DNA from: Chloroflexi bacterium UBA4730
GTDB lineage: Bacteria > Chloroflexota > Limnocylindria > P2-11E
Length of the DNA stretch: 64,000 nucleotides
Direction: 5' to 3'
Assembly (NCBI GenBank): GCA_002404155.1
Contig: DHJC01000023.1
Span: forward strand, 98,733-162,732
In this document: positions 6,306 through 52,309 of the stretch, piece by piece
How the letters are laid out: each line of letters opens with the position of its first letter
Numbering within the stretch: position 1 is the first letter of the stretch
The notes under the pieces: model-generated
Told to the model about the DNA's origin: nothing
The model's database searches: none
What the model saw: only the letters and a program-made list of their open reading frames with translations
Position numbers and translations under genes: made by a program

Positions 6306-6352
6306 GGGCTAAGTGTGGGCTAGGCGGGACCCGCCATCACCGTCGCGGCCCA

Positions 6353-34027: not shown

Positions 34028-34518
34028 GCGATCTCGCCGTCCCGATCGAATACGACAACTGGGCGACCGAGAAGCTCGCGCAGTTCTGTGCCGCGCTCTC
34101 GCCCGAACAGCGCGCGCTCACGACCCCCGGGACGATGGGCACGATCGAGGCGACGCTCATCCACCTCGTCGGCGCGAAGGAGCGCTACGCGGCGGCCCTC
34201 CAAGGGACGGCCCCGCCGGACGATGCCGTCCGCGAGACGACGACGAAGGACCTCGGCCAGGTCGTCGCTCGGGCGAAGAAGCTGAGCGAGTGGTTCGCCG
34301 GCTTCGCGAAGGGCGACCTCGACCTCGATCGGGTCATCGAGCGTCGCGGGGCCGATGGCACAACGCAGCGCATGCCGATGGGGATCCTGATCGCGCAGTT
34401 CCTGCATCACGGGAACGAGCACCGAGCCCAGCTGGGCTCGATCTTCGGCGCGAACGGCATCGAGCCGCCCCACTACTCCGCGTTCCATTGGGGGCACGAG
34501 CTGGGGAAAATCAGCTAG
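34024..34518 (+). CDS. DinB-family protein, copy 2 (tandem paralog)
   Basis: ATGA overlap with copy 1. [13 protein letters not shown]...[13 protein letters not shown]...[24 protein letters not shown]. Confidence 0.75.
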
Positions 34519-35627
34519 GCGGGTGCCTCTTTCGTCGTGGTCACCGCGAACGCGGGCACCGGCTGATGGAATCCCTTCAGCTCGATCTCGCCGATCGACC
34601 TCGCGTCGACAGCGCCCTCGATGGCCGCATGTACGCGGCTGCTGACGAGGATCTCGCCGGCCTTCGCGGCTGCCGACAGCCGCGACGCCTGGATGACCAC
34701 CATCCCGACCGCGCCGTAATCGAACCGGCCCTCGAAGCCGATGCGGCCGAGCGTCGCGTAGCCGACCGCGATCCCGATGCCGAGCCCGAGGTCGTACCCG
34801 CGCTTCTTCCATCCTGCCTGCAACTCGGCGAAGCGCGTCTGCATCGCGAGCGCCATGCGCGTCGCCTGGAGATGCGGCTCGGGGATCGGCATCGGATCGT
34901 TGAAGAACACCATGATCCCGTCGCCAGCGAAGTGCTCGACCGTGCCCTCGTGATGGAAGATGAGCTCGCCCATCGCCGCGTGATACGCGCGCAGCACCCC
35001 GAGCGCCTCCTCGGGCTCCGCGGTCTCCGAGAACGACGTGAAGCCGCGCAGGTCCGCGAAGACGACGGTGATCTCGCGGCGGTGGCCCGCCAGGAAGTCG
35101 TCGGCCCCCTGCGAGACGACGACGTCGGCGATCTGCGGGGAGAGGAACCGGCGCAGCCGGCCGAGCCGTCCGAGCTCGTCGACCTGATCCCGCACGCGAT
35201 CCTCGAGCGTCCGGTTCCAGTCCGCGAGCTCGGTCTTCTGCCGCTCGATCTCGTCGTGATACGTCTTCACCCGCAGGAGCGAACGCACGCGGGCGAGCAG
35301 CTCAGGCTGGTCGAAGGGCTTCGCGATGAAGTCGTCGGCGCCGGCCTCGATGGCCCTGACCTTCTCGGGGAGGCCGCTCGCGGTGACCATCACGACCGGC
35401 AGGAAGCTCGTCTTTGGATCCGCGCGCAGCCGGCGGCAGACTTCGTAGCCATCGATGCCCGGCAGCATGATGTCCAGGAGGACGAGGTCCGGCTTCTCCT
35501 TCAGGACCTGGAGCAGCGCGTCCTCGCCCGTTCCCGCCGTGACGACCTCGAAGCCGTTCGGCGCCAGCACCGCTTCCATCAGCCGCAGGTTCTGCGGGAC
35601 GTCGTCGACCGCGAGGATTTTGGTCAT
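34515..35627 (-). CDS. Response-regulator receiver domain fused to a class III adenylate/guanylate cyclase
   Basis: REC: [13 protein letters not shown]...[17 protein letters not shown]...PVVMVTA...DDFIAKP. A coiled-coil linker follows. Cyclase: [45 protein letters not shown]. Confidence 0.9.
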
Positions 35628-36004
35628 TGTTTCGCGTCCAGATACGCCCGCACTTGGCCGGGGAAGTTCTTCACCTCGATCGGTTTCGCGATGAAGCCGT
35701 CGAAGCCGGCCTCGTTGAACCGCTCGCGATCGCCGGACATCACCGACGCGGTGAGCGCGACGGTCGGGATGTGCTTCGTCCGCGCGTCTGCGCGGATGCG
35801 CTTCATCGCGACGATGCCGTCGATCCCGGGCAGCTGGATGTCCATCAGGATCAGCGCCGGCAGATGCTCCAGGCTCATCGTGATCGCAGATTCGCCGTCG
35901 GTCGCCTCGACCGTGCGGTAGCCGTGGAACCGCAGCACGTCGCGGGCGAGCTTCAGGTTCTTCTCGTTGTCTTCCACGATGAGGATCAGCTCGTTCGCCA
36001 TCAC
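35624..36004 (-). CDS. Stand-alone response-regulator receiver (CheY-like)
   Basis: [13 protein letters not shown]...[16 protein letters not shown]...[10 protein letters not shown]...[13 protein letters not shown] overlaps are present at both ends. Confidence 0.9.
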
Positions 36005-39000
36005 GTCTCCTTCAATAGGGGCAGCGTGACCGTGAAAGTACTGCCTTTGCCCGGTGCGCTATCGACGCTGATCGTTCCGCCGTGCAGCTCGACCATCCGT
36101 TTCGACAGCGTCAGCCCGAGCCCGGTGCCCTCGCGAGACCGCTCGCCTTGGTGCGTCGCCTGCTGGAATTCCTGGAAGATCCGCTCCTGGTCCTCCGGCG
36201 CGATCCCGATGCCGGTGTCGTGCACGGCCAGGCGGACCTCGCCGTTCTCGCGCGCGGCGCGCAGGGTCACGGTGCCGCCGTCCGGCGTGAACTTCACGGC
36301 GTTCGCGAGGAGGTTCACGACGACCTGCTTCAGCTTGCGCTCGTCCGCGACCACCGTGTCGAGCTCCGGGGCGACCTCGAGCGCGAGTTTGATCCCGTGG
36401 CTCTGCGCGCGCTCCCGCACGAGCGTCACGGCGTTGTTCAGCGCGGCGACGAGCGAGAACGGCGCGGCCTCGAGCTCCATCCGGCCGGCTTCGATCTTGG
36501 ACAGGTCGAGGATGTCGTTGATCAGCGTGAGCAGATGTTGCCCCGAGCTCTTGACGTCTTCGAGGTAGTCGGCCTGCTGCTCGTTCAGCTCGCCGAACAT
36601 CCGCTGCAGGAGGACCTCGGAGAAGCCGATGATCGCGTTCAGCGGCGTACGCAGCTCGTGCGACATGTTCGCCAGGAACTCGGTCTTGTGGCGGTTCGCG
36701 ACCTCGAGCTGCGCCGACTTCTCCTGGATCTCCTTGAACAGCCGGACGTTCTCGATCGCGATCGCGGCCTGCCGAGCGAACGACTCGACGAGTTCGATCT
36801 CGCGCTCCTCGAACGGTCGGACGTCGATCCGGACGAGGATGATGACCCCGAGCGCCACATTGCCGCGCAGCAGCGGCACGCCGAGACCGGTACGCGCCCC
36901 GATGTCGATCATGCCCTTCGAGTCGGCGACGGTCGGATCGGCCCTGATGTCATTCACATGGACAGTTCGACGTTCGCGGTATGCGCGTCCCATGACCGAC
37001 GCGGCCTCTCCGATCCGAGCGGTCGGAGACAACGGAGCCAACGGGGAGCCTGCGGCCTCAGGCCGCTTGGACGCGACGATGCGGCCGGTGCCATCGGCAT
37101 CGATCTGACGGATCCAGCCATACTCGGCTTTGCACAACGCGAGCGATTTCTCGAGGACCATCTCGAACACGCGCTTGAGATCGAACGCGCTCTCGCTCAT
37201 CGCCGCCAGAAGCTCGCTCGTCGCGGTCTGCCGCTCGAGCGCCTCCTGCGTCTTGTTGAAGAGCCGGACGTTCTCCATCGCGATCGCCGCCTGGGTCGCG
37301 AAGGACTCGACGACCTCGATCTCGCGTTGCGAGAACGGCGTTGGCTCGCGACGGCCCAGTCGGATCACGCCGATCGGTTCGCCGTCCTTCATGATCGGAA
37401 CGGCCAGGCGGCTGCGGCTCGCGTGGGCGGACGCGACGGCGCGCATGATCGGATCCTCCAGCACGTCGGGGACGTGAACCGAGCGTCGGCTCTTCACCGC
37501 CCGGGAGATCATGGGATGCTCACTCTCATCCTCGATGTCGACGACTGATCCGAGGGGAAGCGAAGGCCAATCTGCGGAGACCGCGCGCAGCACGTAATCA
37601 GAGCTCGAGCCCTCCCGGGCATAGACGCCGGCGTGATTCGCATGACAGATATCGATCGCCGAGTCGACGATGGCCTGCAGGACAGGATCGATGTCGAACG
37701 CCGAGCCGCTGATCACGCGGAGCACCGAAGACGTCGCCGTCTGCCGCTCGAGCGCCTCCTTCGTCTCGGTGAACAGCCGGACGTTTTCGATCGCGATGAC
37801 GGCCTGGGCCGCGAACGTCTCCAGCGCACCGATCTCGCGCTCGTTGAATGGCCGGGCGTCGGAGCGCCGAAGCGCGATCGTGCCGATGGCCACCCCATCG
37901 CGGAGGAGCGGCGCGACCACGACGGCGTGGTAGCCGCCGGCCCGCGCGTTCTCAGCGCCGCGCGGGAACTCGGCCTCCGTTTGCAGATCCTGCACCGCGA
38001 TGGTCCGCGCCCCGAGGAAGGCACGGGAGCTCATAGAGGTCCCGTCGTTCGGGTAGCGCAGGTCGCTCGGGAGAGGCAACGGTCCGCTTTGCGCGGCCAG
38101 CCCCAGGTGGTCGCCGGCCGGAAGCATGACGATCGCGTTCTCGGCGGCGCAGAACCGCAGCGCGTTCTCGACGATCGCTTCGAGGACCGGCCGGACGTCG
38201 GTGGGTGACGCGGAGATCACTCGCAGGATCTCGCTGATCGCCGTCTGCCGCTCGAGCGACTCCTTCGTCTCGTTGAACAGACGCACGTTCTCGATCGCGA
38301 TCGCGGCTTGATCCGCGAAGGTCTGGACGAGCTCGACCTGGCGGTCCGTGAAAGGCACGGCTTCGCGGCGCCGGAGGACCACGGCACCGAGGGCCCGCTC
38401 CTTGACGAGCAGCGGCGCCGCAAGCAGGGCGCGCTGCCCGCTCCCGCCGTCAGCCAGCGCGAACGCCTTGCTCTGTGGGAACTCGTCGTCGGCCGTGACG
38501 TCCGTCGAGACAATCGTCCGCCGATCCAGGATCGCGCGGCCCGTCACCGACGCGCGGTCAAGCGGCGACGCGCTCGCCATCGAGACCGGACCATGGTGGG
38601 CTGACGGGACCGCCTGGTCGCCGCGAACGAGCAGCACTGAGGCATCCTCGGCGTTGGCGAAACGCGCCGCGCTGGAGGCGATCGCGTCGAGGACCGGCTG
38701 GATGTCGGTCGGGGACGCGGAGATCACCTTCAGGATGTCGCTCACCGCGGTCTGCCGCTCCAGCGATTCCGTTGTCTCGTTGAACAACCGAGCGTTCTCG
38801 ATGGCGATGACGGCTTGATCGGCAAAGCTCTCGACGAGCCTGATCTGCTCCTGCGAGAACGGACGCAGTGCTGTTCGCCACAACGCGATCACGCCGATCG
38901 CGCGGTTGCTGCTGATGAGCGGGACCGCGAGTAGCACGCGGAAGCCGCCGAGGCGTTTGGCGTCCGCGTAGGTGTACGTCGGATCGGCGTCGACGTCGGG

Positions 39001-41442
39001 GATATGGATCGTGCGCCGCTCGGCGAACGCCCGTCCGGTAGCCGATCCGGTGTGGTCCGTCCTGATCGGATGCTCGCGTTGCCACTCGCGCATGACATCG
39101 GCTCGCTCACCGAACGAAGCGCGCATCGCAAGGAGATCGCCGTCGACCTGGTACACGAAGCCGTTCTCAGCCTCAGTGAGCTGGCTGGCGTACGCGATGA
39201 CGGTGTGGAGCACGCCGGCGAGATCGAAGGCGGTCCCGCTGATCGCCTTCATGACCTCGCTGGTCGCGGTCTGACGCTCGAGGGAATCCGTCGTCTCGTT
39301 GAATAGCCGGACGTTCTCGATTGCGATCACGGCTTGATCGGCGAATGTCTGCACAAGCTCGATCTGCCGCAGCGAGAAAGGACGCACCTCGTTGCGGGTC
39401 AGGACGAAGACGCCGATGGGGAAGCCGTCCCGCATCAGTGGGACGCCGAGCATCGTCCGGTATCCACCCAGTCGCTGGAGGTCCTTTGCCTCGTACTCTT
39501 GGACCGTCTCGCGTTCGATCGCGACCCGCCCGATGAGCGTCGTGCGCCCGGCGACGCGCGGCGTGTCGTACGCGACGTGCTCGTACTCTTCGTTCTTCGG
39601 CCCGTAGAACGCCGCCGTGCGGTACGCCGATCCATCCCAGCGGTGGATCGATCCGCGCTCGGCCTCGCACAGCCGCGCGGCGTACTCGAGGACGGTATCG
39701 AGCACCGGTTGGAGGTCCTGGCCCGAACGGCTGATCACATTAAGGATTTCGGCGGTCGCAGTCTGCCGCTCGAGCGCCTCCTTCGTCTCATTGAACAGGC
39801 GAACGTTCTCGATCGCGATGACCGCCTGGTTCGCGAACGTCTCGACAAGCGCGATCTGCTGGGCGGTGAATGGGCCCGGCGCCTTGCGCCGCAGCTGGAT
39901 CGTTCCGATCACTTCCTCCCGCCGCCGCAACGGGGTGACGATCGCCGCCCTAAACGGCAGCGTTGCGGCCCGACCTTGCCCGAGCCCATCAGGGAAGTCC
40001 GCGATGGTGGCAGGGTCTTGCAGATCGGGGAGGTGGATCGTGACCCGGTCGAGGACGGCCCGGCCCTGGACTCGGTCACGCGTCACCTTGGCATCAAACT
40101 CGGTCTCGTCGATCGGACCAACGTGCGCCCACGCGGAGATCCGGCCTTCGTGGAACAGATGGAGCGCGGCATCCTCGGCACCGCAGTAGCGGACCGCATT
40201 CGTTGCGATCGCGTCGAGCACCGGCTGCACGTCCGTCGGCGACTCCGAGATCGCGCGGAGGATCTCGGCGGTGGCGGTCTGCCGCTCGAGCGCCTCCTTC
40301 GTCTCGTTGAACAGACGCACGTTCTCGATGGCGATGACCGCTTGGGACGCGAACGTCTCGACCAGCTCCACCTGCTGGGGAGTGAACGCGCCGGCCTGGC
40401 GTCGCCGGAGCTGGATGGCGCCGATGGCTGCCCCGTTCTTGATCAGCGGGGCGGCGAGGAAACCGCGGTAGCCCTGTCGCCGGGCGATCTCCTTGCCCTC
40501 GCGGAACTGGTCATCGTTGAGCGACTCCATGTCCGCGATGTTGAACGTCCGCGCCTCCCTGATCGCCCGGGTCGTCACCGAGAGCGATTCGATCGAGTAC
40601 GCGCGGTACGCCCACTCGATCGGCCCATGGTGCGCGATGAGGCTGACCGATCCGTCCTTGATGAGGGCAACGCCCGCATCCTCCACTGCGGTGAAGTCGG
40701 CGGCGCTCTTGGCGATCGTCTCGAGGACCGGTTGGACGTCGGTCGGTGAGCTTGAGATCACCCGCAGGATCTCGCTGATGGCCGTCTGCCGCTCCAGCGC
40801 CTCCGTTGTCTCGGTGAAGAGACGGGCGTTCTCCATCGCGACCGCGAGCTGGTCGACGAAGGTCTCCATGAGCGCGATCGTCGGCTTGTCGAAGCCGCCG
40901 GGATCGTCGCGCGACATCGTGAGCACGCCGATGGACTCACCGTCTCGGAGGATCGGCACCGACAGCCGGGTCCGGCGCTTCTCGGCATCCGGAAGCTTGG
41001 GCTCCGCGAACTTCGTGTCGGCGTAGTGGAAGCGCTGACCGCTGAGGGCCGCCCGGCCCCACAGCGATCCGGGCTCCGCCTCCATCCGCATGCCGCGTTC
41101 GAGGCCGGTCGAGCCGTACGTCGCGCCGACGACCCACGCGTCCGCCTCGCGGCGGATGAAGCTGCCATTGTCCGCGCCAGCCAGCCTCTTGGAAGCCTTC
41201 ACGATCATGTCGGCGACCTGATCGAGGCCGACCGCGGGATCGGCGAGGGATCGCATGACCTGGCTGACGACGGCGAGGTGATCGGCCGCGCCCGCGGCAG
41301 GGCCCGGCGCCGCAGTGCGCTTCGGCGCGGCAGCCTTTTTCGGCGCCGCCCGTACCGTCTTCTCCTTTGCTCCCGCCCTCACCCTGCGCAGTATCGGCGG
41401 GTCCTCGGCCCCTGGGCTAGGGCCGTCCGTTACCTGGGACAC
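36001..41442 (-). CDS. Cytoplasmic sensor histidine kinase with nine tandem GAF domains + HisKA + HATPase_c (1813 aa)
   Basis: Nine GAF modules of about 170 aa are joined by near-identical linkers, (I/M)EN(V/A)RLF(N/T)ET(K/T)E(A/S)LERQTA(T/I)(A/S)E(I/V)L. The H-box is [21 protein letters not shown], the N-box is [12 protein letters not shown], and the G-boxes are DTGIGI and [13 protein letters not shown]. No TM segment was seen. Confidence 0.9.
36734..40843 (-). repeat. Intragenic periodic repeat: nine copies of a 35-65-bp conserved segment spaced about 510 bp apart (GAF-GAF linker helices)
   Basis: On the plus strand, GTCTGCCGCTCGAGCGCCTCCTTCGTCTCGTTGAACAGACGCACGTTCTCGATCGCGAT-like segments occur near 36734, 37220, 37730, 38235, 38745, 39255, 39755, 40275 and 40781. 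Confidence 0.8.
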
Positions 41443-41505
41443 CTGGCGCGGGTGCTCTTCGCAACGCTCGCCAACGCTCCTACCCTGAACGCCCCGGGAG
41501 GGTGG

Positions 41506-43638
41506 ATGGACATCTGGCAGACCCTGCGTGACCGGCTGGACTACGCATCGTTCGTTCCGACGCCCGTCTCGGACGTCGAGCGCGCCGATCTGCGCCGCCG
41601 CGACGGCAATCCGTACACGATGCTGAAGAACCCGACCGGCGACCGCGGCGCGGGTCGCTACCTGCGTCTGGACCCCGCCGACGTCGAGCTGTTCGAGCTC
41701 ATGGATGGCCGGCGCTCGATCCAGGAGATCCTCGTGGCGCAGCTCGAGCGCACCGGCGTGTTCGCGCTCGATCGGCTGGCGCGGCTCACTGCCGCGCTCC
41801 GGGCCAATGGCTTCTTCGGTGAGGAGCCGCCGGTCCTGTACGAGAAGCTGGCCGCGCGCAAGGCGATGCGCGATCCGATCGTGCGCGCATCGCTGTTCCT
41901 CCGCCGGCTCGTCCTCTGGGACATCGCACGGTGGTCGAACGCGGACCGCGTCGTCGATCGCGTGTACCGCCTCGGCGGTTGGCTCGCGTTCACGCGCATC
42001 GGCGCGTCGCTCCTGGTCGGCTTCGGTCTTTACGGGCTATGGCTGTGGTTCCAAGAGGTCCGTGATCCGAAGCTGCAGCTGGTCACGATCGACGGCTCGT
42101 ACGCGCGCGGGATCCTGGCCCTCATCGTCCTGCAGGTGATCTCGATCTCGGTGCACGAAGCGGGTCACGCGCTCGCGATCCGCCACTACAAGCGCCACGT
42201 CCGGCGGTTCGGCGTCGCGATGTACTACCTCTTCCCGTGCTTCTACGTCGACTCGACCGACATGACCCTTGGCTCACGTGGGCAGCGCATCGTCGTCTCG
42301 CTCGCCGGGCCGTTCGCGGGCCTCACTACCGCGGCCGCCTGTGCGGTGGCGGCCGCGGCCCTGCCCGGTACGCTCGCCGGCGAGCTCGCGTTCAAGGCCG
42401 CGAGCCTGTTCGTCTTCCAGTTCATCTTCAACCTGCTCCCGATCCTCGAGCTCGACGGGTACCACGTGCTCGTCGACGCGGTCGATGCGCCATTCCTCCG
42501 GCAGCGCGCGATGTGGTTCGTGCGCAGCGCCGCGCTCCGGAAGCTGCGTGCGCGCGCCCGGTGGACGCGTGAGGAGGCCGGGCTCGCGCTGTTCGGCGTG
42601 GCCGCGATCGTCACGTCCCTGCTGACGCTCGTCATGTCGATCCTGCTGTGGCAGTCGCGCATCGCCAGAGCGGGGCGCGAGCTCCTCGCGGGCGGTCCGG
42701 CCGGTCTCGCCGTGCTCGCCCTCCTCGTCCTCGTGTTCGTTGGACCGCTCGCGGTCGCGGTGATCGCGCGGCTCATCGGCATCGTGAGAACGAGCGTCAC
42801 GCTTGCGACGGCGCGCAGCCGCGCTGCGACCGCGCGCGAACAGGGGGCGCGCACGGCGATGCTCGGGCGGGTCCGATTCCTCGCCGGCCTCCCGGGCCCG
42901 ACACTCGCCGCGCTCGCGTCACACCTGCGCGTCGAGCGGGTCGACGCGGGCCACACCGTCATCACGGCCGGCAGCGTCGGCGATCGCTTTTATCTCGTGC
43001 GGTCCGGACGGCTCCAGGCGGTCGCGCCCGACGGCGCCGTCCTCGGCGAGATCGCCCCCGGCGAAGGCTTCGGCGAGCTCGCGCTCATCGACCGGACGCC
43101 GCGCACCGCGACGGTCCACGCGCTCGAGGCGGCCGAGCTTTGGTCGCTCGACAGCTCGCATTTCCAGCGCTGGGTCCGCGACCGCTTCGAGATCGCAGCG
43201 CGGATCCGCGCCGATCAGGGGCAGCGTCAGGCGCTCGCGACGTTGCCATTCTTCCGCGACCTCGAGGGCCGCGAGCTCGACCGGATCGCCGCCCGGGTGC
43301 AGACCCGCCGGTACGAAGGTGGCGAGGTCGTCATCCAGGCGGGCGAGACCGGTGGCGGCTACTACCTTATCCGCGAGGGCACCGCCGACGTCACCCTTCC
43401 TGATGGCCGCTACGTCCGGACCCTCGGACCGGGGGACGGCTTCGGCGAGCTGGCCCTCATCTTCGGCGTGCCCCGGACCGCGACCGTAACGGCCAAGGGC
43501 CCGCTCGCCGTCGGGGTCCTCGGCCGGCCGGACTTCGCGGCGCTGGTCGCGGCGTCAGGTGAATCGATGCGTGATTTCCGCGCGCGGACGGGCCATTATG
43601 TCGGTGCCGGCCTCGGTGGGGCCGTTGGGGGAGCGTGA
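41506..43638 (+). CDS. Site-2 (M50) intramembrane metalloprotease with an N-terminal PqqD/RRE-like cytoplasmic domain and two C-terminal cyclic-nucleotide-binding domains
   Basis: ATG at 41506 with a [21 protein letters not shown] lies in a TM helix, and the second S2P motif is [15 protein letters not shown], with about 6-7 TM segments. The N-domain is [39 protein letters not shown]. The CNB cassettes are [21 protein letters not shown] and [21 protein letters not shown]. Confidence 0.85.
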
Positions 43639-43854
43639 GTGGACTGCTGGATCTGCGAGCGGCCGGCGCTCGCCGCGTGCCGGTTCTGCGGTCGGGGGGC
43701 GTGCCGGGAGCACGCGAAGAGCCACCCGTTCGTTCTAGACGTGTATCGCGGCGAAAAGCATCGTTCGCTGCGCGCCCTCGTCGTGGAAGACGCGATCCAT
43801 TGCGGGGTCTGCCGGCCCAGGAGCGAGCCGGTGGATATGCCCGAGCTGGAATAG
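43639..43854 (+). CDS. Small Cys-rich zinc-ribbon protein (DUF2180-like pattern)
   Basis: GTG follows the protease TGA immediately. The 71-aa protein VDCWICERPALAACRFCGRGACREHAKSH...IHCGVCRP has the pattern CxxC-x7-CxxCGxGxCxxH...CxxC and no TM segment. Confidence 0.6.
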   Translation: MDCWICERPALAACRFCGRGACREHAKSHPFVLDVYRGEKHRSLRALVVEDAIHCGVCRPRSEPVDMPELE

Positions 43855-43986
43855 GGGAGGCGACGCCCGGGACGGTCTGAAGGTTAGGTAGATCACGTAT
43901 CAGGCGTGCCGGCGTGTATCGAGCGGGGTCCGCGTTCGGCGCACATTTCACGCAATTCCACAAGGAAAGAAAGAAGGAGCAAGGCG

Positions 43987-44976
43987 ATGGCAAGCAAGAA
44001 CCTAGGGGCAGTGATCCAGCGAGCGATCAGCGACGGGGCGTTCCGTCGCCAGCTTCAGTCCGACCCTGCCGCGGCGCTCCGCGGCTTCAACCTCACGGCG
44101 GACGAGGTCGCTGCGATCCGCAGCGGTGACTCGAGCAAGCTCATGTCGCTCGGTGTCGACCAGCGGATGAGCAAGGCGTTCTCACTCGGTGGCGGGATCG
44201 GCGGCGGCGCGGCACGCACGTCGGTCTCCGACCTGAGCGGCGGCGCCACGGCGAGCACGATCGCGAACGACCCGACAGCCGGCGCCCGCGAAGGCATCGT
44301 CGGCGACCCGACCTCCGGATCGCGCGAAGCGATCACGACCGGAAACGTCGGCGGCACCCGCGCGGTCAACGACTCGGCGCCGTTCGATGGCGGCCGGGCT
44401 AGCTTCGCCGACCCGACCACAAGCGGCACCCGTGCGATCCATGACAGCGAGCCGGCTGATCTCCGTTCAGCGGCGAGCACCGGCGGCTTCTCCGGCACCC
44501 GCGCGGTCAACGACAGCGAGCCGTTCGCTGGCAACGCCGCGATCAACGACAACATGGCAGCGGCGAACGCCGGCCGCGGCGGATCGCTCACCGGCGACAT
44601 GTCCGACGGCAGCGCCCGGGCCATCCACGACGTAGCTCCGTTCGGCACAACTGGATCCTCGGCGATCGAGGACCCGAACTCACCGGAGTACGCGGCGGCT
44701 AACGACGGTGGGACCCTCGCCAGCCGCATGGCCGACGCAGGCACGGCCGACGCGGTCCGCGCGATCCACGACGTCGCACCGTTCGAGGGCAACGTCAACG
44801 CGGCCGCATCGAGCGGCGGCGAGTTCCTCGGCGGCGACGCCCGCCTCGACCCGGGCACCGACAGCTCGCACGGCTTCGTCCCGAGCGACTCGGCGGACGT
44901 GCAGCGCGAGCTGCTCGATCCAGGCGACGACCACGGCAACGCTCTCGGCAACGTCGGCGGCGGCCACCCCAGCTAG
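43987..44976 (+). CDS. Repeat protein with an NHLP/Os1348-like leader-type N-terminal domain (hypothetical)
   Basis: ATG at 43987 with a GAAGGAG SD (43973-43979). The N-terminus is MASKNLGAVIQRAISDGAFRRQLQSDPAAALRGFNLTADEVAAIRSGD, followed by the Gly run SLGGGIGGGA. At least 5 repeats follow: GTRAVNDSAPF, GTRAIHDSEPA, GTRAVNDSEPF, SARAIHDVAPF, AVRAIHDVAPF. The upstream 27 codons of the track ORF were discarded. Confidence 0.7.
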   Translation: MASKNLGAVIQRAISDGAFRRQLQSDPAAALRGFNLTADEVAAIRSGDSSKLMSLGVDQRMSKAFSLGGGIGGGAARTSVSDLSGGATASTIANDPTAGAREGIVGDPTSGSREAITTGNVGGTRAVNDSAPFDGGRASFADPTTSGTRAIHDSEPADLRSAASTGGFSGTRAVNDSEPFAGNAAINDNMAAANAGRGGSLTGDMSDGSARAIHDVAPFGTTGSSAIEDPNSPEYAAANDGGTLASRMADAGTADAVRAIHDVAPFEGNVNAAASSGGEFLGGDARLDPGTDSSHGFVPSDSADVQRELLDPGDDHGNALGNVGGGHPS

Positions 44977-45036: not shown

Positions 45037-45747
45037 CTAGTACCGGATCTCGCTCTGGAGGAGCGCGCGGTCCTTCAGCTGGATGTGGCGCCGGCCGATC
45101 TTGATCCCGCCGCGGTTCTCCAGGTCCGCGAGCACCCGATTCACCGAGACCCGCGTGGCCCCGACGAAGCTCGCGAGATCCTCCTGCGTCAGGTCGACCT
45201 GGTTGCCCCCCGAGGCCTCCGCGAGATCGAGGAGGCACTTCGCCACCCGACCCGGCAGGTCGAGGAACACGAGGTCCTCGACGTGCCCGGTGCTGTGACG
45301 GACCGTCTTCACCAAGAGGGCGAGCATCCGGCGCATCGCATCGGGGTTGCGTTCGAGCGTGGTGAGGAACTCCTGGCGCGCGAGCGCGAGGGTGTGGGTC
45401 TCGGTGAGCGCCGTGACCGTGGCCGACCGCGGACCTTCGTCGAAGAGCGCAAGTTCGCCGAAGACGTCGCCACCGCGCTCGAGCGCGATCACTACTTCGT
45501 GGCCCTGCTCGTCGGGCACGGATACCTTCACCGTGCCGGAAGCGATCAGGAACACCTGGCCTGCCGCATCGTCACGGTGGAAGACGACTTCGTCGCGAGC
45601 GAACTGACGCGGACGCATCTTCGAGGCGAGAGCGAGCCGGTCGTCGGCGCTCAGGCAGGCGAAGAGCGGGCTCTCCGCGAGGAAATCGGCGATCGCCGTG
45701 GCGTCCACGTCGGCTGAATAGTGCCGCCCGGCGTCAAGCGGCATCAC
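45037..45747 (-). CDS. Crp/Fnr-family transcriptional regulator (cNMP-binding + HTH)
   Basis: The CNB domain is LFACLSADDRLALASKM...GDVFGELALFDEGPRSATVTA. The C-terminal HTH is LTQEDLASFVGATRVSVNRVLADLENRG. Confidence 0.9.
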   Translation of the reverse strand: MMPLDAGRHYSADVDATAIADFLAESPLFACLSADDRLALASKMRPRQFARDEVVFHRDDAAGQVFLIASGTVKVSVPDEQGHEVVIALERGGDVFGELALFDEGPRSATVTALTETHTLALARQEFLTTLERNPDAMRRMLALLVKTVRHSTGHVEDLVFLDLPGRVAKCLLDLAEASGGNQVDLTQEDLASFVGATRVSVNRVLADLENRGGIKIGRRHIQLKDRALLQSEIRY

Positions 45748-45779: not shown

Positions 45780-46721
45780 CTAGCTGAGGCCCCCGACGAG
45801 CTCCAGGAAGCGTGGCTTCACCTCGGTCATCGTCCGCTCGATCGTCTCGCGGTCGAACGGCGGCGACATCCCGAACAGGAACCCCTTCACTCCGACCTTG
45901 TGGTATTCGACGAGCTTTTTCGCGATGTCGTCGGGCTTCCCGAGCAGCCCCGGCCGGTTCGGCGCCTCGACCTTGTTCCGCGCGGCGATCTCGCGCATCC
46001 GTTTGTCGACCGTGTTCAGGTCGTCGCGCACCAGGACCGACCCGCCGGCCGTCGGCGCGATCTCGTTGTAGTTACGGCCGACGTCGTCGCAATGCCTCTT
46101 CAGGACGCCGAGCTTGTGCTTGATCACGTCCGCGGTCCCGAAGCCGTGCCACCAGTCCGCGTAGTGCGCCGTGATCTTGAGCGTCACCTGCTCACCGCCG
46201 CCGCCGATCAGGACCGGCAGGCGCTTCTGGATCGGGCGGGTGCCGAGCGTCGCGCGCTCCAGCTGGTAGTACTTGCCCTGGTACGTCACTTTTCCGGTGT
46301 CGAGCAGGCCGCGGATGATGCGCGTCGCCTCGCGCAGCTTCGCGAGCCGGATCGCCGGCGTGTCGAAGGCGATGCCGTACATCTTGTGCTCGTGCTCGTT
46401 CCACGCGGCACCGATCCCGAGGACCGCGCGACCGTTCGTGATGTTGTCGAGCGTGGCGGCCATGTTCGCGAGCACGGCGGGGTGGCGGTAGGTGTTTCCC
46501 GTGACCAGCATCCCGATCAGCGGCCTCTTCGTGATCGCGCCGAAGGCCGCGAGCACCTGCCAGCCCTCGAGGTTCGGTCCGGTGACGTCGCCCATGAGCG
46601 GGACGAAGTGATCCCAGGTCATGAGGACATCCCAGCCTGCCTGCTCGGCAAGAAGCGCGGCCTCGCGCATCTCATCCCAGGTCGTGTACTGCGGGTGCAG
46701 CTGCAGGCCGAAGAAGGTCAT
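45780..46721 (-). CDS. LLM-class F420-dependent oxidoreductase
   Basis: MTFFGLQLHPQYTTWDEMREAALLAEQAGWDVLMTWDHFVP...LVTGNTYRHPAVLANMAATLDNITNGRAVLGIGAAWNEHEH...LIGGGGEQ. Confidence 0.85.
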   Translation of the reverse strand: MTFFGLQLHPQYTTWDEMREAALLAEQAGWDVLMTWDHFVPLMGDVTGPNLEGWQVLAAFGAITKRPLIGMLVTGNTYRHPAVLANMAATLDNITNGRAVLGIGAAWNEHEHKMYGIAFDTPAIRLAKLREATRIIRGLLDTGKVTYQGKYYQLERATLGTRPIQKRLPVLIGGGGEQVTLKITAHYADWWHGFGTADVIKHKLGVLKRHCDDVGRNYNEIAPTAGGSVLVRDDLNTVDKRMREIAARNKVEAPNRPGLLGKPDDIAKKLVEYHKVGVKGFLFGMSPPFDRETIERTMTEVKPRFLELVGGLS

Positions 46722-46753
46722 TGCCCGCCTCCGAGCGTATAGTCCGAACGCCG

Positions 46754-48097
46754 ATGGCGCTCACCCAGGATCGCACCGACGTCGCGAAAGTCCTCGCGGA
46801 CACGCAGAAGCACGTCCTTGTCAACTGGTCCGCGCAGGGGAATATTTCGCCCCTCGTGATCACTGGGGCGGACGGCGTCTGGCTCCATTCCGGTGATCGC
46901 CGGATCCTCGACTTCAGCTCCGAGCTCGTGAATTCGAACCTCGGCCACGGCCATCCGCGCGTGGTACGCGCGATCCAGGAGCAGGCCGCGATCCTCAACT
47001 ACGTGACTCCCGCCTTCACCACCGAGGCCCAGGCGACGCTCGCCCGGAAGCTCGCGGACGTCGCACCGGGGGACCTGACGAAGACGATCTTCACGACCGG
47101 CGGCACCGAGGCCAACGAGAACGCGATCAAGCTCGCGCGCCTGTACACCGGCCGCCACAAGATCCTCACCCAGTGGCGGAGCTTCCACGGGCAGACCCAG
47201 GGCGCGATGACCCTCGGTGGGGATAACCGCCGCTGGGCGAACGAGCCGGGCATCACCGGTGTCGTGCACTTCCTCAATCCCGATCCGTATCGCTCGGTCT
47301 TCGGCAGCGATGCCCGCAAGGCGCTCGCCCACGTCGAAGAGGTCATCTGGTACGAGGGGCCGCAGTACATCGCGGCGATCCTGCTCGAGCCGATCGTCGG
47401 CACGTCGGGGCTGCTCGTCCCGCCCGACGGATTCCTGCAAGGCCTGCGGACCCTCTGCGACACGTACGGCATCGTCCTCGTGTTCGACGAGGTCATGACC
47501 GGCTTCGGGCGAACCGGGAAGTGGTTCGCGTCCGAGCACTGGAACACCGTGCCCGACATCATGACCTTCGCGAAGGGCGTGAACTCCGGCTATGTCCCGC
47601 TCGGCGGCGCGATCGTGAACGAGAAGATCGCGAAGCACTTCGACGACAACGTGTACTGGGGCGGCCTCACGTATAGCGGCCACGCCCTTGCCTGCGCGGC
47701 CGGCGTGGCGACGATCGAGGCGTACGAGAGCGAAGACCTCATCGGCAACTCCGCACGGATGGGTGAGCTGCTCGGGCGCCAGCTGAACGCGCTCGCGGCA
47801 AAGCACCCGTCCATCGGCGACGTCCGCGGCCGTGGCCTCTTCTGGGGCATCGAGCTCGTGAAGGACCGCGGCACGAAGGAGATGCTCGAGCAGTGGAACG
47901 GGCCGTCGAGCGCGCTCGCCAACGCCCTCAAGGGCGAGCTCATGAAGCGGAACGTGTACGTGTTCTGCCGCTGGAACATGTTGTTCGTCGCCCCGCCGCT
48001 CATCGTCGACGAGGAAGAGCTGCGCATCGGTGTCAAGGCGATCGACGAGGCGCTCGAGGTCGCGGATCGCTTCGCGGCGACCGGCAAGCTCGCATAG
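46754..48097 (+). CDS. Class III (omega) aminotransferase
   Basis: ATG at 46754. TTGGTEANENAIKLAR, VFDEVMTGFGRTG and TFAKGVNSGYVPLGG (PLP lysine). Confidence 0.9.
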   Translation: MALTQDRTDVAKVLADTQKHVLVNWSAQGNISPLVITGADGVWLHSGDRRILDFSSELVNSNLGHGHPRVVRAIQEQAAILNYVTPAFTTEAQATLARKLADVAPGDLTKTIFTTGGTEANENAIKLARLYTGRHKILTQWRSFHGQTQGAMTLGGDNRRWANEPGITGVVHFLNPDPYRSVFGSDARKALAHVEEVIWYEGPQYIAAILLEPIVGTSGLLVPPDGFLQGLRTLCDTYGIVLVFDEVMTGFGRTGKWFASEHWNTVPDIMTFAKGVNSGYVPLGGAIVNEKIAKHFDDNVYWGGLTYSGHALACAAGVATIEAYESEDLIGNSARMGELLGRQLNALAAKHPSIGDVRGRGLFWGIELVKDRGTKEMLEQWNGPSSALANALKGELMKRNVYVFCRWNMLFVAPPLIVDEEELRIGVKAIDEALEVADRFAATGKLA

Positions 48098-49047
48098 CCC
48101 AGCGTCCTCGCCCGCACTGGGGCATCAACCTCCCGGCACAGCACACGACGTGGCCGGAGCTGCGCGACACCGCCGCGCTCGTCGACCGGCTTGGCTTCGA
48201 CTCGCTGTTCACCTGGGATCACTTCGTCCCGCTCGACGGCGATCCGAAGGGTCCGATGTTCGAGGCCTGGGAGCTGCTCGCGGCGTGGGGCGCGCTCACC
48301 TCGCGGGTGCGGCTCGGGACGCTCGTCACCGGCAACACGTATCGCCACCCGCCAGTGCTCGCGAAGATGGTCACGACCCTCGACCACGTGACCAACGGGC
48401 GCGCCATCCTCGGGCTCGGCGCGGCGTGGCACGAGGGCGAGCACGCGATGTACGGACTGCGGTTCCCATCCACCGGCGAGCGCCTCGCCCGGATGGACGA
48501 GGCTGCGCGGGTGCTGCGCCTCTTGCTCGACGACCCGGTCGCCAGCTTCGAGGGCAAGTATTACCAGCTCAAGGACGCGATCGCCGAGCCGAAGCCCGTA
48601 CAGAAACGGCTGCCCATCCTCATCGGAGGCGGCGGTGAGCAGAAGACGCTCCGGACGGTCGCGAAGTACGCGGACTACTGGCACGGCCACGGGACGCCCG
48701 AGGTCATCAAGCACAAGCTCGAGGTCCTCGCGGCCCATTGCGAAGCCGTGGGCCGTGACATCGCGGAGATCACGCCGCTCACGACCATCCGGCCGGACCT
48801 TGTCCTCCGCGACAACGTCCGCGACGTCGAGGCGCAGCTCGAGCGCGTGCGTGCACGGTCGAAGCGCGCCGACCCGCTGCCGGTGAACCCGATCCACACC
48901 GTCGATGCGCTGGTGGACCGCTGCGCCGCGCTCTGGCAGGCCGGCGCACGAGGATTCATCCTGTACTTCATGGCGCCGTTCGATTACGAGACGATCGAAC
49001 GCATCGCCACTGAGGTGCGGCCGAAGGTCGAAGAGGCGATCGCATGA
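48094..49047 (+). CDS. LLM-class F420-dependent oxidoreductase (paralog of 45780-46721); start codon uncertain
   Basis: WGINLPAQHTTWPELRDTAALVDRLGFDSLFTWDHFVP...LVTGNTYRHPPVLAKMVTTLDHVTNGRAILGLGAAWHEGEH...LIGGGGEQ. There is no in-frame ATG/GTG/TTG between the upstream stop and the conserved N-terminus. The coordinate 48094 is the ATA of an ATAG junction. Confidence 0.7.
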   Translation: MAQRPRPHWGINLPAQHTTWPELRDTAALVDRLGFDSLFTWDHFVPLDGDPKGPMFEAWELLAAWGALTSRVRLGTLVTGNTYRHPPVLAKMVTTLDHVTNGRAILGLGAAWHEGEHAMYGLRFPSTGERLARMDEAARVLRLLLDDPVASFEGKYYQLKDAIAEPKPVQKRLPILIGGGGEQKTLRTVAKYADYWHGHGTPEVIKHKLEVLAAHCEAVGRDIAEITPLTTIRPDLVLRDNVRDVEAQLERVRARSKRADPLPVNPIHTVDALVDRCAALWQAGARGFILYFMAPFDYETIERIATEVRPKVEEAIA

Positions 49048-50261
49048 CCGTCGCGGTTCGCGCGGCCACGCTCATCGACGGCACCGGCGCCGATCCGGTC
49101 CGCGGACGCTTCGTGGTCATCGAGGACGGGGTCATCCAGCGCATCGCGAAGGCCGCGCCGAAGGGCGCGGAGGTCATCGACGCCGGCGAGCTCACCATCC
49201 TTCCCGGCCTCATCGACTGTCATGTGCACCTCGCGCTCGGACAGGAGAACATCCAGCAGCGGCTCCTCACGCCCCTGAGCCTCAATACCGCGATGGCGCT
49301 CGTGCACGCGCGCGAGACGCTCGATGCCGGCTTCACCACCGTGCGCGACGCCGGCTTCACCACCCGCGGCGTGAAGATGGCCGTCGAGCGTGGGCTCTTC
49401 GCTGGCCCGCGGATGCGCATCGCGGTCTCGCCGCTCTCGCAGACCGGCGGGCACGGGGATTCGATGACGCCGTCCGGCGTGAACATGTGGCCTGGCGATC
49501 CGGAGCGGCCGAACGGTGTCGTCGACGGGATCGAGGGCGTCCGTCGCGCGAGCCGCGAGGTGCTGCGAGCGGGCGCCGACCAGATCAAGATCATGACCTC
49601 GGGCGGCGTGTTGTCCCCGAACGACGAGCCCGGCGCGACCGGGTTCTCGCCGGAGGAGATCGCCGCCGTCGTGTACGAGGCTCACGCCTCGGGCAAGACC
49701 GTGATGTCGCACGCGCAGGCGACGCAGGGCATCAAGAACGCCGTGCTCGCAGGCGTCGAATCGATCGAGCACGGCATCTACCTCGACGAGGAGACCTGCG
49801 CGGAGATGAAGAAGCGCGGGACGTACCTCGTCGCCACGCTCATCGCGCCGCTCTGGGTGCTCCGCCGCGCCGAGAAGGATCCCTCGGCCATCCCGCCGTA
49901 CGCGCTGCGGAAGGCGAAGGAGGTCGTCGAGGCCCACCGCCGCTCGTTCCGGATGGCCGTCGAGAAGGGCCTGAAGATCGCGATGGGCACCGACACCGGC
50001 GTCGGCCCACACGGGACGAACGCCGAGGAGATCGCGGTCATGGTCGAGAACGGCATGACGCCGATGCAAGCGATCGTCGCGACGACCAGGACGGCAGCCG
50101 AGTGCGCGCGCGTCGACACGCTGGTCGGAACGATCGAGCCCGGCAAGCGCGCGGACCTCGTGGGCGTGCGGGGCGATCCGCTCGCGAACATCGCGCTGTT
50201 CAAGGATCAGAGCTGCGTCGCGTTCGTCATGAAGGACGGCGCGGTCCACAAGCGGAGCTAG
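49044..50261 (+). CDS. Metal-dependent amidohydrolase (amidohydrolase_1 family)
   Basis: ATGA overlap with the upstream gene. LPGLIDCHVHLA (HxH), VMSHAQA, SIEHG and MGTDTG. Confidence 0.85.
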   Translation: MTVAVRAATLIDGTGADPVRGRFVVIEDGVIQRIAKAAPKGAEVIDAGELTILPGLIDCHVHLALGQENIQQRLLTPLSLNTAMALVHARETLDAGFTTVRDAGFTTRGVKMAVERGLFAGPRMRIAVSPLSQTGGHGDSMTPSGVNMWPGDPERPNGVVDGIEGVRRASREVLRAGADQIKIMTSGGVLSPNDEPGATGFSPEEIAAVVYEAHASGKTVMSHAQATQGIKNAVLAGVESIEHGIYLDEETCAEMKKRGTYLVATLIAPLWVLRRAEKDPSAIPPYALRKAKEVVEAHRRSFRMAVEKGLKIAMGTDTGVGPHGTNAEEIAVMVENGMTPMQAIVATTRTAAECARVDTLVGTIEPGKRADLVGVRGDPLANIALFKDQSCVAFVMKDGAVHKRS

Positions 50262-51283
50262 TGCAGCGCTGGCGTCCGCCCGAGGGCTGGCGGCGCATCA
50301 CGACCCTCGATTCGCACGCTGCGGGCGAGCCGCTCCGCATCGTCACCGGTGGGGTCGATCCGATCCCGGGCCGGACGATCCTCGAGAAGCGGCGCTACGC
50401 GCGCGAGCACCTGGACGGACTGCGGCGCGCGATCGTGTTCGAACCGCGCGGCCATGCCGACATGTACGGCGCGATCCCCACCGAGCCGGTGACGGCCGAC
50501 GGCGACCTCGGCGTCCTCTTCATGCACAACGAGGGCTGGAGCACGATGTGCGGCCACGGGATCATCGCCCTGACCACCGCGCTCCTCGAGACCGGGGAGC
50601 GCTCCGGCGATGTCGTTAGATACGACGCGCCGCCCGGCCGGGTGACCGCGCGAGCGACCCGCGATGGGACACGCGTGCGCGAGGTCGCGTTCGAGAACGT
50701 GCCGTCGTTCGCCGTCGCGCTCGACGAGACGGTGGATGTCGAGGGGCTTGGCGAGGTCCGGTACGACCTCGCGTTCGGCGGTGCGTTCTACGCGTTCGTC
50801 GACGCCGATGCCCTCGGCGTGCCGCTCGACGAAAGCGGCTTTCGGCAGTGCATCGACGTCGGGATGCGCATCAAGCGCGCGGTCATGGCAAGCACACCGG
50901 TGCGGCACCCCGAGTCGCCTGATTCCGCGGACCTCTCCTTCTTGTACGGGACGATCCTTACCGGGCGGCCCCACCAACCCGGCGCGGACTCGCGGAACGT
51001 CTGCGTGTTCGCGGAGGGAGAGGTCGACCGGTCGCCCACCGGGACCGGCGTGAGCGCCCGTGTGGCGATCGAGCATGCGCGCGGGCGGCTGCGCGACGGC
51101 GCGAGCTTCACCGTCGAGAGCATCATCGGCACCCGCTTCCGTGGTCGCGCGTTGCGGGCAGCGACGGTGGGTCCATATGCCGCCGTGGTGCCGGAGGTCG
51201 CGGGCTCCGCGTGGACCGTCGGTCGCTCGGAGCTCTGGATCGCGCCCGACGATCCGCTCCGCGAGGGCTTCGTCCTCCGCTAG
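50261..51283 (+). CDS. Proline-racemase-family enzyme of the Cys/Thr type (trans-3-hydroxy-L-proline dehydratase-like)
   Basis: GTG overlaps the upstream TAG. HAAGEPLRIVTGG, STMCGHG (Cys codon 50549-50551) and EVDRSPTGTG (Thr codon 51038-51040, where racemases/epimerases carry Cys). Confidence 0.8.
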   Translation: MQRWRPPEGWRRITTLDSHAAGEPLRIVTGGVDPIPGRTILEKRRYAREHLDGLRRAIVFEPRGHADMYGAIPTEPVTADGDLGVLFMHNEGWSTMCGHGIIALTTALLETGERSGDVVRYDAPPGRVTARATRDGTRVREVAFENVPSFAVALDETVDVEGLGEVRYDLAFGGAFYAFVDADALGVPLDESGFRQCIDVGMRIKRAVMASTPVRHPESPDSADLSFLYGTILTGRPHQPGADSRNVCVFAEGEVDRSPTGTGVSARVAIEHARGRLRDGASFTVESIIGTRFRGRALRAATVGPYAAVVPEVAGSAWTVGRSELWIAPDDPLREGFVLR

Positions 51284-52293
51284 ACCGTCGTGCCTGCGAG
51301 CAATCCGCGCAGCTTCGGGATGATGTCCGTGCCGTATGCCTCGAGCTGCCGCTCCTCGTCACCGCTCATGAGGTAGAGGTTGAACTGCGACATCCCGGCT
51401 TCTGCGAGTGCGTGCAGCTTCTCGACCTGCTCGGCGACCTCACCGGTGACGCAGAAGCGGTCCACTGATTCGTCGTCGACGAAGCCGGCGTTCGACGAGC
51501 CTGACTCCGCATGGTGCTTGTAGTCGTATCCCGGCCGGTTACGCACGTAGCTCGTGAGGTCCGCCGGCAGGCCCTGCTCGCCGTAGCGGCGCACCAGATC
51601 GACGACGTGGTTGCTCACGAGGGCGGGGAACCAGCGCACCCGCTCGCGCACATCCGCCTTGCGGCCCACGTGCGCGGGCGCCGCGACCATCACTTTCACC
51701 TCGCTCGCGTCGCGCTTCGCGGCGCGGGTGCCCTCGCGCAGTAGACCGACGCACCACCGCACGAGGCTCGGGTCGGCGATCTGGATGACCGCGCCGTCCG
51801 CGATGCGGCCGCTGATCGCGAGGGCCTTCGGTCCGTAGCCGGCGATCCACACCGGCAGGTCGTACGGCTCGGCCCAGTCGAGCTTGAGGTCAGTGCCGTC
51901 GTACGTCACCGCGCGACCTTCGCAGAGATCGCGGATCGCGACCGTGGCCGCCTCGAGGTCGTCGAGGGTGGTCGGCTTCTTGCCGAGCACGCGGCGCGCG
52001 GAGTCGCCGCGCCCGATGCCAAGGTCCATGCGGCCTTTTGACAGGATCTGGAGCACCGCGAGGGTGCTCGCCGTGACCGACGGCTCGCGCGTTGCCGGGT
52101 TAGTGACGCACGTGCCGAGCCGCAGCCTCGTGCTGTTCTGGGCCATGAGCGTGAGGAGCACGTACGGCTCCTTCCAAAGAACGTGGCTGTCGAAGACCCA
52201 GCCGTGGGTGAAGCCGCACTGCTCGGCGAGCTTCGTCAGCGAAACGACGCGCTCGAGCGGATGGTCGGGCTTGAGGGTGAAGCCGAATTCCAT
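51280..52293 (-). CDS. LLM-class F420-dependent oxidoreductase (Mer/methylene-H4MPT-reductase-like subgroup)
   Basis: MEFGFTLKPDHPLERVVSLTKLAEQCGFTHGWVFDSHVLWKEPYV...LGTCVTNPATREP...DLGIGRGDSARR. Confidence 0.85.
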   Translation of the reverse strand: MEFGFTLKPDHPLERVVSLTKLAEQCGFTHGWVFDSHVLWKEPYVLLTLMAQNSTRLRLGTCVTNPATREPSVTASTLAVLQILSKGRMDLGIGRGDSARRVLGKKPTTLDDLEAATVAIRDLCEGRAVTYDGTDLKLDWAEPYDLPVWIAGYGPKALAISGRIADGAVIQIADPSLVRWCVGLLREGTRAAKRDASEVKVMVAAPAHVGRKADVRERVRWFPALVSNHVVDLVRRYGEQGLPADLTSYVRNRPGYDYKHHAESGSSNAGFVDDESVDRFCVTGEVAEQVEKLHALAEAGMSQFNLYLMSGDEERQLEAYGTDIIPKLRGLLAGTTV

Positions 52294-52309
52294 AGGGCGC
52301 CGAGTCTAG

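Follow-up and report, generated by a model that had tools for sequence, protein, structure and literature searches.

The analysis concerns a 64,000-nucleotide (nt) stretch of contig DHJC01000023.1 from Chloroflexi bacterium UBA4730 (assembly GCA_002404155.1, positions 98,733 to 162,732 of the forward strand), which is referred to as the window and whose own numbering is used throughout. A gene on its forward strand encodes a membrane protease of 710 amino acids (aa) in which a domain resembling a recognition element (RRE) for peptides that are made on the ribosome and modified after translation (RiPPs), a peptidase M50/site-2 protease (S2P) core and two domains for cyclic nucleotide monophosphate (cNMP) binding (CNB domains) follow one another in a single chain. 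In a sequence-only reading the protein had been described as an S2P regulated through two cNMP-binding cassettes. The open reading frame (ORF) starts with an ATG seven bases past GGGAGGG, and the gene for a small Cys-rich protein directly follows its stop codon. The features of this pair of genes are as follows.

41506..43638, forward strand: 710-aa protein with an RRE-like N-domain, an M50/S2P membrane core and tandem cNMP-binding domains (ORF, Shine-Dalgarno sequence, Pfam, NCBIfam, AlphaFold2)
41578..41805, forward strand: RRE/PqqD-like winged-helix domain, aa 25-100 (Pfam PqqD, AlphaFold2, Foldseek)
41995..42786, forward strand: M50 membrane core with six predicted transmembrane (TM) helices and a re-entrant beta-hairpin (Pfam, conservation, AlphaFold2, Lys plus Arg counts)
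42895..43239, forward strand: cNMP-binding domain 1, with its cassette at 43060..43122, aa 519-539 (Pfam, structure matches, PKA alignment)
43267..43611, forward strand: cNMP-binding domain 2, with its cassette at 43432..43494, aa 643-663 (Pfam, structure matches, PKA alignment)
43639..43854, forward strand: 71-aa Cys-rich protein (ORF), its GTG start codon directly abutting the stop codon of the protease gene

The membrane core and the cNMP-binding domains

The protein matches Pfam Peptidase_M50 (PF02163) with an E-value of 3.4e-11 (43.4 bits, above the curated cutoff of 27.2) and, in two stretches, cNMP_binding (PF00027) with an E-value of 1.6e-38 (131 bits against a cutoff of 27.5). Translation places the HExxH motif, which reads HEAGH, at residues 217-221 (nt 42154..42168) within the TM helix 199-227, and the second M50 motif, NxxPxxxxDG, at residues 309-318 (nt 42430..42459) in another TM helix. 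In M50 enzymes and S2Ps the latter, also called the LDG motif, is the source of the third zinc ligand. In 27 homologues with identities of 28-54%, H217, E218, H221, N309, P312, D317 and G318 hardly vary, and neither do the ligand residues of the two cassettes, E524, R533, E648 and R657; conservation of these residues is far beyond chance. Both catalytic motifs are therefore intact, as had been claimed, and the protein is read as an active membrane metalloprotease.

An AlphaFold2 model of the protease, built on 27 homologues and with a mean pLDDT of 86.2, contains TM helices at residues 164-186, 199-227 (carrying HExxH), 258-285, 290-310 (with the NxxP motif at its end), about 358-383 and 399-427. 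A beta-hairpin at residues 235-248 follows the HExxH helix, as in other S2Ps, and a long helix connects the membrane core to the first (464-578) and second (588-702) CNB domains. Both cassettes, at positions confirmed by translation, are C-terminal to helix 399-427, in agreement with the proposal that two complete cassettes come after the last TM segment. Lys and Arg residues together number 27, about 8, 9 and 35 in the segments on the predicted inner side and 1, 0 and 3 in the outer loops, and because of this distribution the protein is predicted to be N-in and C-in, with the N-domain and the CNB tandem both cytoplasmic. The shared cytoplasmic face that had been expected of the two is thus found both in the model and in the counts.

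For known S2Ps, control is exerted through PDZ or CBS domains and through site-1 cleavage upstream. RseP shares with the protease the HExxH and LDG motifs in TM helices and the re-entrant hairpin after the HExxH helix, but it has another topology and is regulated by periplasmic PDZ domains, whereas the protease has no PDZ domain and its regulation is predicted to be cytoplasmic. SpoIVFB, for which the arrangement is established, and the M. jannaschii S2P have, like the protease, a six-TM M50 core and, C-terminal to it, a cytoplasmic regulatory domain of ligand-binding type. The position of CBS in the SpoIVFB type is held here by the CNB tandem, with no CBS match in the Pfam scan of the protein, and the RRE-like N-domain is extra. 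Of the partners of SpoIVFB, no Pro-sigmaK-like substrate and no BofA or SpoIVFA homologue was seen with the protease.

The whole CNB tandem, of about 250 aa, aligns as a single unit to the CNB-A and CNB-B domains of PKA regulatory subunits (PKA-R) and PKG (profile E-value 1e-62), with both cassettes conserved, and Foldseek aligns it to PKA-R and PKG structures with an E-value of 4e-22; when the full-length model was used, Foldseek returned CNB matches only. In PKA-R and PKG the tandem controls a kinase, whereas here it is fused to a membrane protease. The CNB1 cassette pairs gaplessly with the A site of bovine RI-alpha (1ne4, 'fgelaliygtpraatvka') and the CNB2 cassette with the B site ('fgeiallmnrpraatvva'), aligning E524/R533 and E648/R657, respectively, with the ligands of these sites. 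The Arg and Glu ligands that the earlier description relied on are accordingly present in both domains. The alignment to PKA had also been expected to tell cAMP from cGMP, and this part did not hold: both cassettes read PRTA, in which the Arg is followed by Thr, the residue of PKG and HCN, whereas PKA has Ala there. Thr at this position is found in cGMP-selective as well as cAMP-selective CNB domains, and the nucleotide preference is not callable from such cassettes. Judging from the residues kept, it is likely that the tandem senses cNMP, and direct cNMP control of the proteolysis may then be envisaged.

The RRE-like N-domain, the Cys-rich partner and the spread of the architecture

While the M50/S2P core upholds the label of site-2 protease, the label proved incomplete as a description, since an RRE/PqqD-like domain is also present at the N-terminus and the closest profiles are those of RiPP-type M50 peptidases. 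In the AlphaFold2 model three strands (residues 25-30, 36-42 and 51-55) are followed by three helices (57-65, 72-83 and 88-100), and the N-domain modelled alone has a pLDDT of 82.5 overall and above 90 over residues 21-100. The top Foldseek match by probability is the lasso-peptide RRE TbiB1 with bound leader (5v1v_A, probability 0.99, TM-score 0.71, E-value 0.07), and TglI is also among the best by this measure. Pfam PqqD scores above its cutoff of 23.4 bits in the homologues P0242 (26.9) and P0260 (23.9). On the model, then, the N-domain looks like an RRE.

The top NCBIfam profile is daptide_HExxH (NF041824, daptide biosynthesis intramembrane metalloprotease), with an E-value of 3.7e-39 over residues 47-411, and the second is that of the YydH/LiaK epipeptide protease (NF058609), with an E-value of 1.5e-17 over residues 202-327. 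Membership of either family was rejected. For the first the score is 134.9 bits against a cutoff of 300, and the conserved daptide enzymes were not found near the genes of the window or of L004, one of the homologous loci fetched for comparison (L numbers); for the second it is 64.1 bits against 225. The daptide enzyme (MpaP type) is like the protease in having an N-terminal RRE-like domain fused to an M50 intramembrane metalloprotease, but it is without CNB domains. The daptide system differs further in that MpaB, MpaC, MpaD and MpaM are not conserved near the protease gene and the candidate precursor here does not end in Thr. YydH/LiaK is likewise an M50-type HExxH membrane peptidase, and acts on a ribosomal peptide, but its family has neither RRE nor CNB domains, and no radical-SAM epimerase lies near the protease gene. 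The fusion of an RRE to the N-terminus of an S2P is the feature that led to the daptide clusters, and such enzymes are known RiPP peptidases (10.1101/2023.03.08.531785). Because of the daptide profile match, the PqqD-like N-domain and these known fusions, the M50 part is grouped, by sequence, with the RRE-bearing peptide-processing M50 enzymes and not with RseP or SpoIVFB.

The most faithful partner of the protease gene is that of the 71-aa Cys-rich protein. Its residues C3, C6, C14, C17, C22, H25, C55 and C58 form a Cys/His pattern that is conserved in an alignment of the family together with a C-terminal LPEL[ED] (LPELE in the window), and the protein is probably zinc-binding. The gene is directly 3' of the protease gene in essentially all fetched loci with enough DNA, and the linkage holds for Actinomycetota proteases that are only 32-39% identical to that of the window. 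Starting from the Cys-rich family, which comprises 1358 clusters, all hypothetical or unnamed, each of three members looked up (3/3) lies directly behind an M50 plus CNB gene of 720-734 aa. Two side observations concern the DNA that follows. A Lys/Ala-rich basic ORF of about 40-58 aa (e.g. MAEKKISPKAP..AATRVTKK..) recurs directly after the Cys-rich gene and before a Crp gene in L069, L072-L078, L083, L084, L086 and L087, which are loci of the Actinomycetota type without a gene of the NHLP clan (described below), and in two loci unrelated to each other, one of class A and one of class B as defined below, the gene after the Cys-rich one is that of a Peptidase_M16 (L088:7213-8469 and L092:3930-5147).

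The combination of PF02163 and PF00027 is common in public sequence data yet uncharacterised. It is present in 120/120 close relatives among the matches listed (67-100% identity), and a full-text literature search found no paper on an S2P/M50 plus cNMP-binding architecture. Proteins 100% identical to the protease are on record from Chloroflexota metagenome-assembled genomes (MAGs; Candidatus Limnocylindria) under the names 'hypothetical protein', 'cyclic nucleotide-binding domain-containing protein' and 'CRP-like cAMP-binding protein/Zn-dependent protease' only. Among 1.84 billion representatives there were 635 matches at E <= 1e-30, and the best 150 of the 635 (clusters at 50% identity) were dissected with the four domains of the protease; most have the architecture. 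Within these 150, class A, of about 700-750 aa and with the same layout as the protease, has about 45 representatives. Class B, of about 1000-1170 aa, in which a block of additional hydrophobic helices separates the M50 core from the CNB tandem, has about 65; its insert has no Pfam match. Class C, in which the CNB domains are N-terminal and some members have FHA domains, has about nine, and in P0260 and P0254 three FHA and/or three CNB domains precede the RRE-M50 module. The Cys-rich gene was present behind 3/3 class B proteases (about 1100 aa) and missing in both class C loci examined. In P0139, a class A representative, HExxH is gone (LYALIQGL) and the CNB cassettes are kept, and this protein may be a pseudoprotease. 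A scan of GTDB species representatives gave 431 relatives, of which the best 80 come from Limnocylindria and other Chloroflexota, Dehalococcoidia and Actinomycetota MAGs. Five Limnocylindria-type loci, 60-86% identical (L008, L013, L024, L047 and L055), lie in MAGs labelled Saccharimonadales, Thermoanaerobaculia or Acidiferrales, and these odd labels probably reflect binning contamination rather than transfer.

NHLP-clan neighbours and candidate substrates

Downstream of the Cys-rich gene is a third gene on the same strand.

43987..44976, forward strand: 329-aa protein with a 65-aa Os1348-family NHLP-clan leader-like domain and a hypervariable low-complexity tail (NCBIfam, Pfam)

Its first 65 aa match NF038399 ('Os1348 family NHLP clan protein') with 61.8 bits against a cutoff of 40, and the protein matches Pfam Frankia_peptide with an E-value of 1e-7. 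Across loci the leader is conserved up to DQRMSKAF, and beyond this the proteins continue as 120-480 aa of hypervariable, low-complexity sequence. Typical Os1348 NHLP-clan or Frankia_peptide members have about 65-90 aa, as in L071 and L088, whereas the protein in the window adds a 265-aa tail. This contains five RA[VI][HN]D[SV][AE]PF repeats at 44300..44850 that are shared by the closest relatives (at least 79% identity) only. In all Limnocylindria loci the protease/Cys-rich pair has an NHLP-clan gene or, in some cases, two next to it; L068, L071 (with a tandem of five 68-aa genes), L082 and L088 have such genes as well. A second weak 'leader' match in the window, at 56957..57622, was dismissed as an Arg-rich off-frame translation.

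In two of the related loci, L087 and L088, an ECF sigma factor gene lies beside the protease/Cys-rich pair, and the neighbour of the sigma factor, itself close by the pair, combines a weakly matching anti-sigma N-terminus with an NHLP-clan domain.

L088:9091-9576, forward strand: anti-sigma-like::NHLP protein (NF038399 E-value 1.5e-8)
L087:3763-4155, reverse strand: anti-sigma-like::NHLP protein (NF038399 E-value 3.3e-7)

A broader NHLP-clan hidden Markov model made here matches the two with E-values of 8e-11 (L087) and 1e-15 (L088). It is mainly because of these fusions that the NHLP-clan domain is read as a possible handle for the RRE-like domain.

The same neighbours admit a biosynthetic explanation, in which the protease would be a RiPP leader peptidase, the NHLP-clan protein the precursor of a natural product whose leader is removed during maturation and export, and cNMP would only tune production. 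The daptide and epipeptide profiles are its nearest (3.7e-39 and 1.5e-17, as given above) and would fit such a role, as would the RRE-like N-domain, but the scores are far under the cutoffs of both (134.9 against 300 and 64 against 225). With its conserved leader and hypervariable tail the neighbour is precursor-like, and the five tandem 68-aa copies in L071 have the same flavour; the supposed cores would, however, be 120-480 aa of low-complexity sequence. A methyltransferase gene overlaps in the class C locus L091, but the gene cassette has no conserved modifying enzyme or exporter, the flanking genes of the window differing from those of L004. Moreover, the best-conserved partner is a folded Cys-rich protein and not a precursor, and the anti-sigma fusions point to signalling. 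Taken together, a biosynthetic role would seem unlikely, if the strongest of the alternatives considered.

A different explanation is that of a classical S2P, cleaving a transmembrane anti-sigma factor or other membrane protein encoded elsewhere, with the neighbouring genes unrelated to its substrate. This would be in keeping with the intact S2P core and the predicted cytoplasm-facing active site, and ECF sigma factors do flank some homologues (L004, L087 and L088). In the window, however, there is no sigma/anti-sigma pair within 10 kb of the protease gene, and adjacent sigma factors in other loci have partners in which no TM segment is obvious and the NHLP-clan domain is present. The protease's RRE-like domain, and the tight operon of its gene with that of the Cys-rich protein, also argue for partners that are encoded locally. 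We consider the classical role very improbable, and soluble NHLP-tagged proteins, rather than transmembrane anti-sigma factors, to be the likely substrates.

Candidate cyclic-nucleotide signalling genes and a proposed mechanism

Genes on the opposite strand on either side of the protease gene cassette encode candidate components of cNMP signalling, and a putative regulatory site lies within it.

34515..35627, reverse strand: fusion of a response-regulator receiver with a class III nucleotidyl cyclase, a candidate cNMP source (Pfam; Protein Data Bank (PDB) matches to the cyclase domains of CyaB, Cya2 and CyaC)
35624..36001, reverse strand: single-domain response regulator (gene calls)
36001..41442, reverse strand (41382 as the end with an alternative start): nine-GAF histidine kinase, its gene divergent from that of the protease (Pfam, gene calls)
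43882..43897, no strand assigned: conserved Crp/FNR-like 16-mer GGTTAGGTAGATCACG, located some 90 nt upstream of the gene for the NHLP-clan protein (alignment of 46 loci)
45037..45747, reverse strand: Crp/Fnr-family regulator (cNMP_binding and HTH_Crp_2), convergent with the gene cassette (Pfam)

The trio of kinase, response regulator and cyclase genes is divergent from the gene cassette in the window and in L010, L017, L026, L058 and L060. In L036, L037 and L044-L047 it is co-directional and ends a few bases before the protease gene, and because the adjacency survives this inversion the trio and the gene cassette may well be functionally linked. Crp-family genes recur near the protease gene in Limnocylindria, Actinomycetota and class B loci; in the class B locus L089 a Crp gene is directly upstream, the gene of a cyclase of 1110 aa lies beyond it, and downstream there is another class III cyclase gene. 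With a cyclase module and a Crp-family regulator next to the protease gene, it is more plausible that cNMP signalling really takes place. In the PDB alignments shown for the receiver-cyclase, the receiver domain is the only part covered. A second class III cyclase homologue in the window is found inside a large ORF at 2994..6308 (reverse strand; E-value 7.6e-27 to the cyclase domain). The nine-GAF histidine kinase is unusually large, at about 1800 aa, and has no evident TM segment.

These genes bear on the possibility that the CNB domains are not cNMP receptors at all, and bind another ligand or serve in dimerisation or as a scaffold only, as in the trypanosome PKA-R or KCNH channels. CNB folds with non-cNMP ligands exist and are among the structural matches (6flo and 6hyq), and the nucleotide specificity cannot be read from the cassettes. 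The neighbouring cyclase has, by eye against the KxxGD motif, His where the adenine-specifying Lys (Glu in guanylyl cyclases) normally sits. On the other hand, both domains retain the Gly-Glu and Arg of the cassette, and so does the family as a whole, and cyclase and Crp genes recur beside the protease gene in distant family members. A role for the tandem other than in cNMP binding is, in our estimation, quite unlikely.

Positions 2-3 of the Crp-like 16-mer are GT and positions 14-15 are AC in 46/46 loci, with the consensus nGTnA-N6-ATCACA, and in 3 of the 46 it is a perfect TGTGA-N6-TCACA. A scan with the Crp consensus that allowed up to two mismatches gave no site in the gene cassette; the window copy has three, so that the footprint emerged only when the 46 orthologous intergenic regions were aligned. 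Its form would fit transcriptional control by the adjacent Crp-family protein. A similar sequence, CGTTACCTGGGACACC, at 41428..41443 upstream of the protease gene is conserved, by eye, in the closest clade only. Scans for sigma-70 promoters and terminators yielded nothing useful.

From the domain identities, the conserved catalytic and ligand residues, the predicted topology and the gene linkage we infer the following series of functional steps. Signals reaching the multi-GAF kinase would activate the receiver-cyclase and cause cNMP to rise. The same cNMP would act on the adjacent Crp-family regulator, which could switch on the substrate gene via the putative site upstream of it. Binding of cAMP or cGMP to the CNB tandem would gate access of the substrate to the cytoplasm-facing M50 site, or catalysis there, and the RRE-like domain would dock the leader-like Os1348/NHLP-clan domain of substrates for cleavage, the candidate substrate in the window being the NHLP-clan protein at 43987..44976. 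The 71-aa Cys-rich protein would be an obligate partner, as adaptor, inhibitor or co-substrate. That cNMP gates an RRE-guided M50 protease cutting NHLP-tagged proteins, within a conserved signalling cassette, is the reading we favour, at slightly better than even confidence.

Several observations weigh against it. Pfam PqqD matches the protease itself with an E-value of 0.011, and its 16.4 bits are under the cutoff of 23.4; the Foldseek E-values of the N-domain are non-significant, the best being 0.03-0.07; and the two anti-sigma fusions, at 34.6 and 30.3 bits, are under the NF038399 cutoff of 40. The 329-aa NHLP-clan protein is without a TM segment, unlike canonical S2P substrates. An NHLP-clan neighbour is missing in the sampled Actinomycetota and class B loci, though the Cys-rich gene is present, and because the one is missing where the other persists the universal substrate may be something else. 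In about nine Limnocylindria loci the 8-kb flanks lack the cyclase trio, and none of the Actinomycetota loci has it. Cyclases are also frequent in the source genome, with two within 64 kb, so that some of the adjacency could be due to chance.

Beside Crp, channels and acetyltransferases, a cNMP-gated S2P would be a new class of cNMP effector in bacteria, and membrane proteolysis would gain a new kind of input. From the RRE-like domain and from NHLP-tagged neighbours, the anti-sigma fusions among them, it seems that leader recognition from peptide natural-product biosynthesis may have been put to use again in signalling. Uncultured soil Chloroflexota and Actinomycetota are rich in the family, and its partner family is wholly uncharacterised. 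A broader version, which we put forward tentatively and with some doubt, is that of a widespread unrecognised device in which an RRE-guided membrane protease, teamed with an obligate zinc-finger partner, is licensed directly by cAMP or cGMP to destroy or process soluble NHLP-tagged proteins, including anti-sigma factors in some bacteria. In such a device cNMP signalling, RiPP-style leader recognition and regulated proteolysis would be joined in one pathway, and some 'RiPP precursors' would have to be re-read as signalling substrates.

Beyond the Crp-family gene, the run at 45780..52300, which is not conserved beside the gene cassette in L004, comprises F420/LLM oxidoreductases, a class III aminotransferase, an amidohydrolase and a proline racemase.

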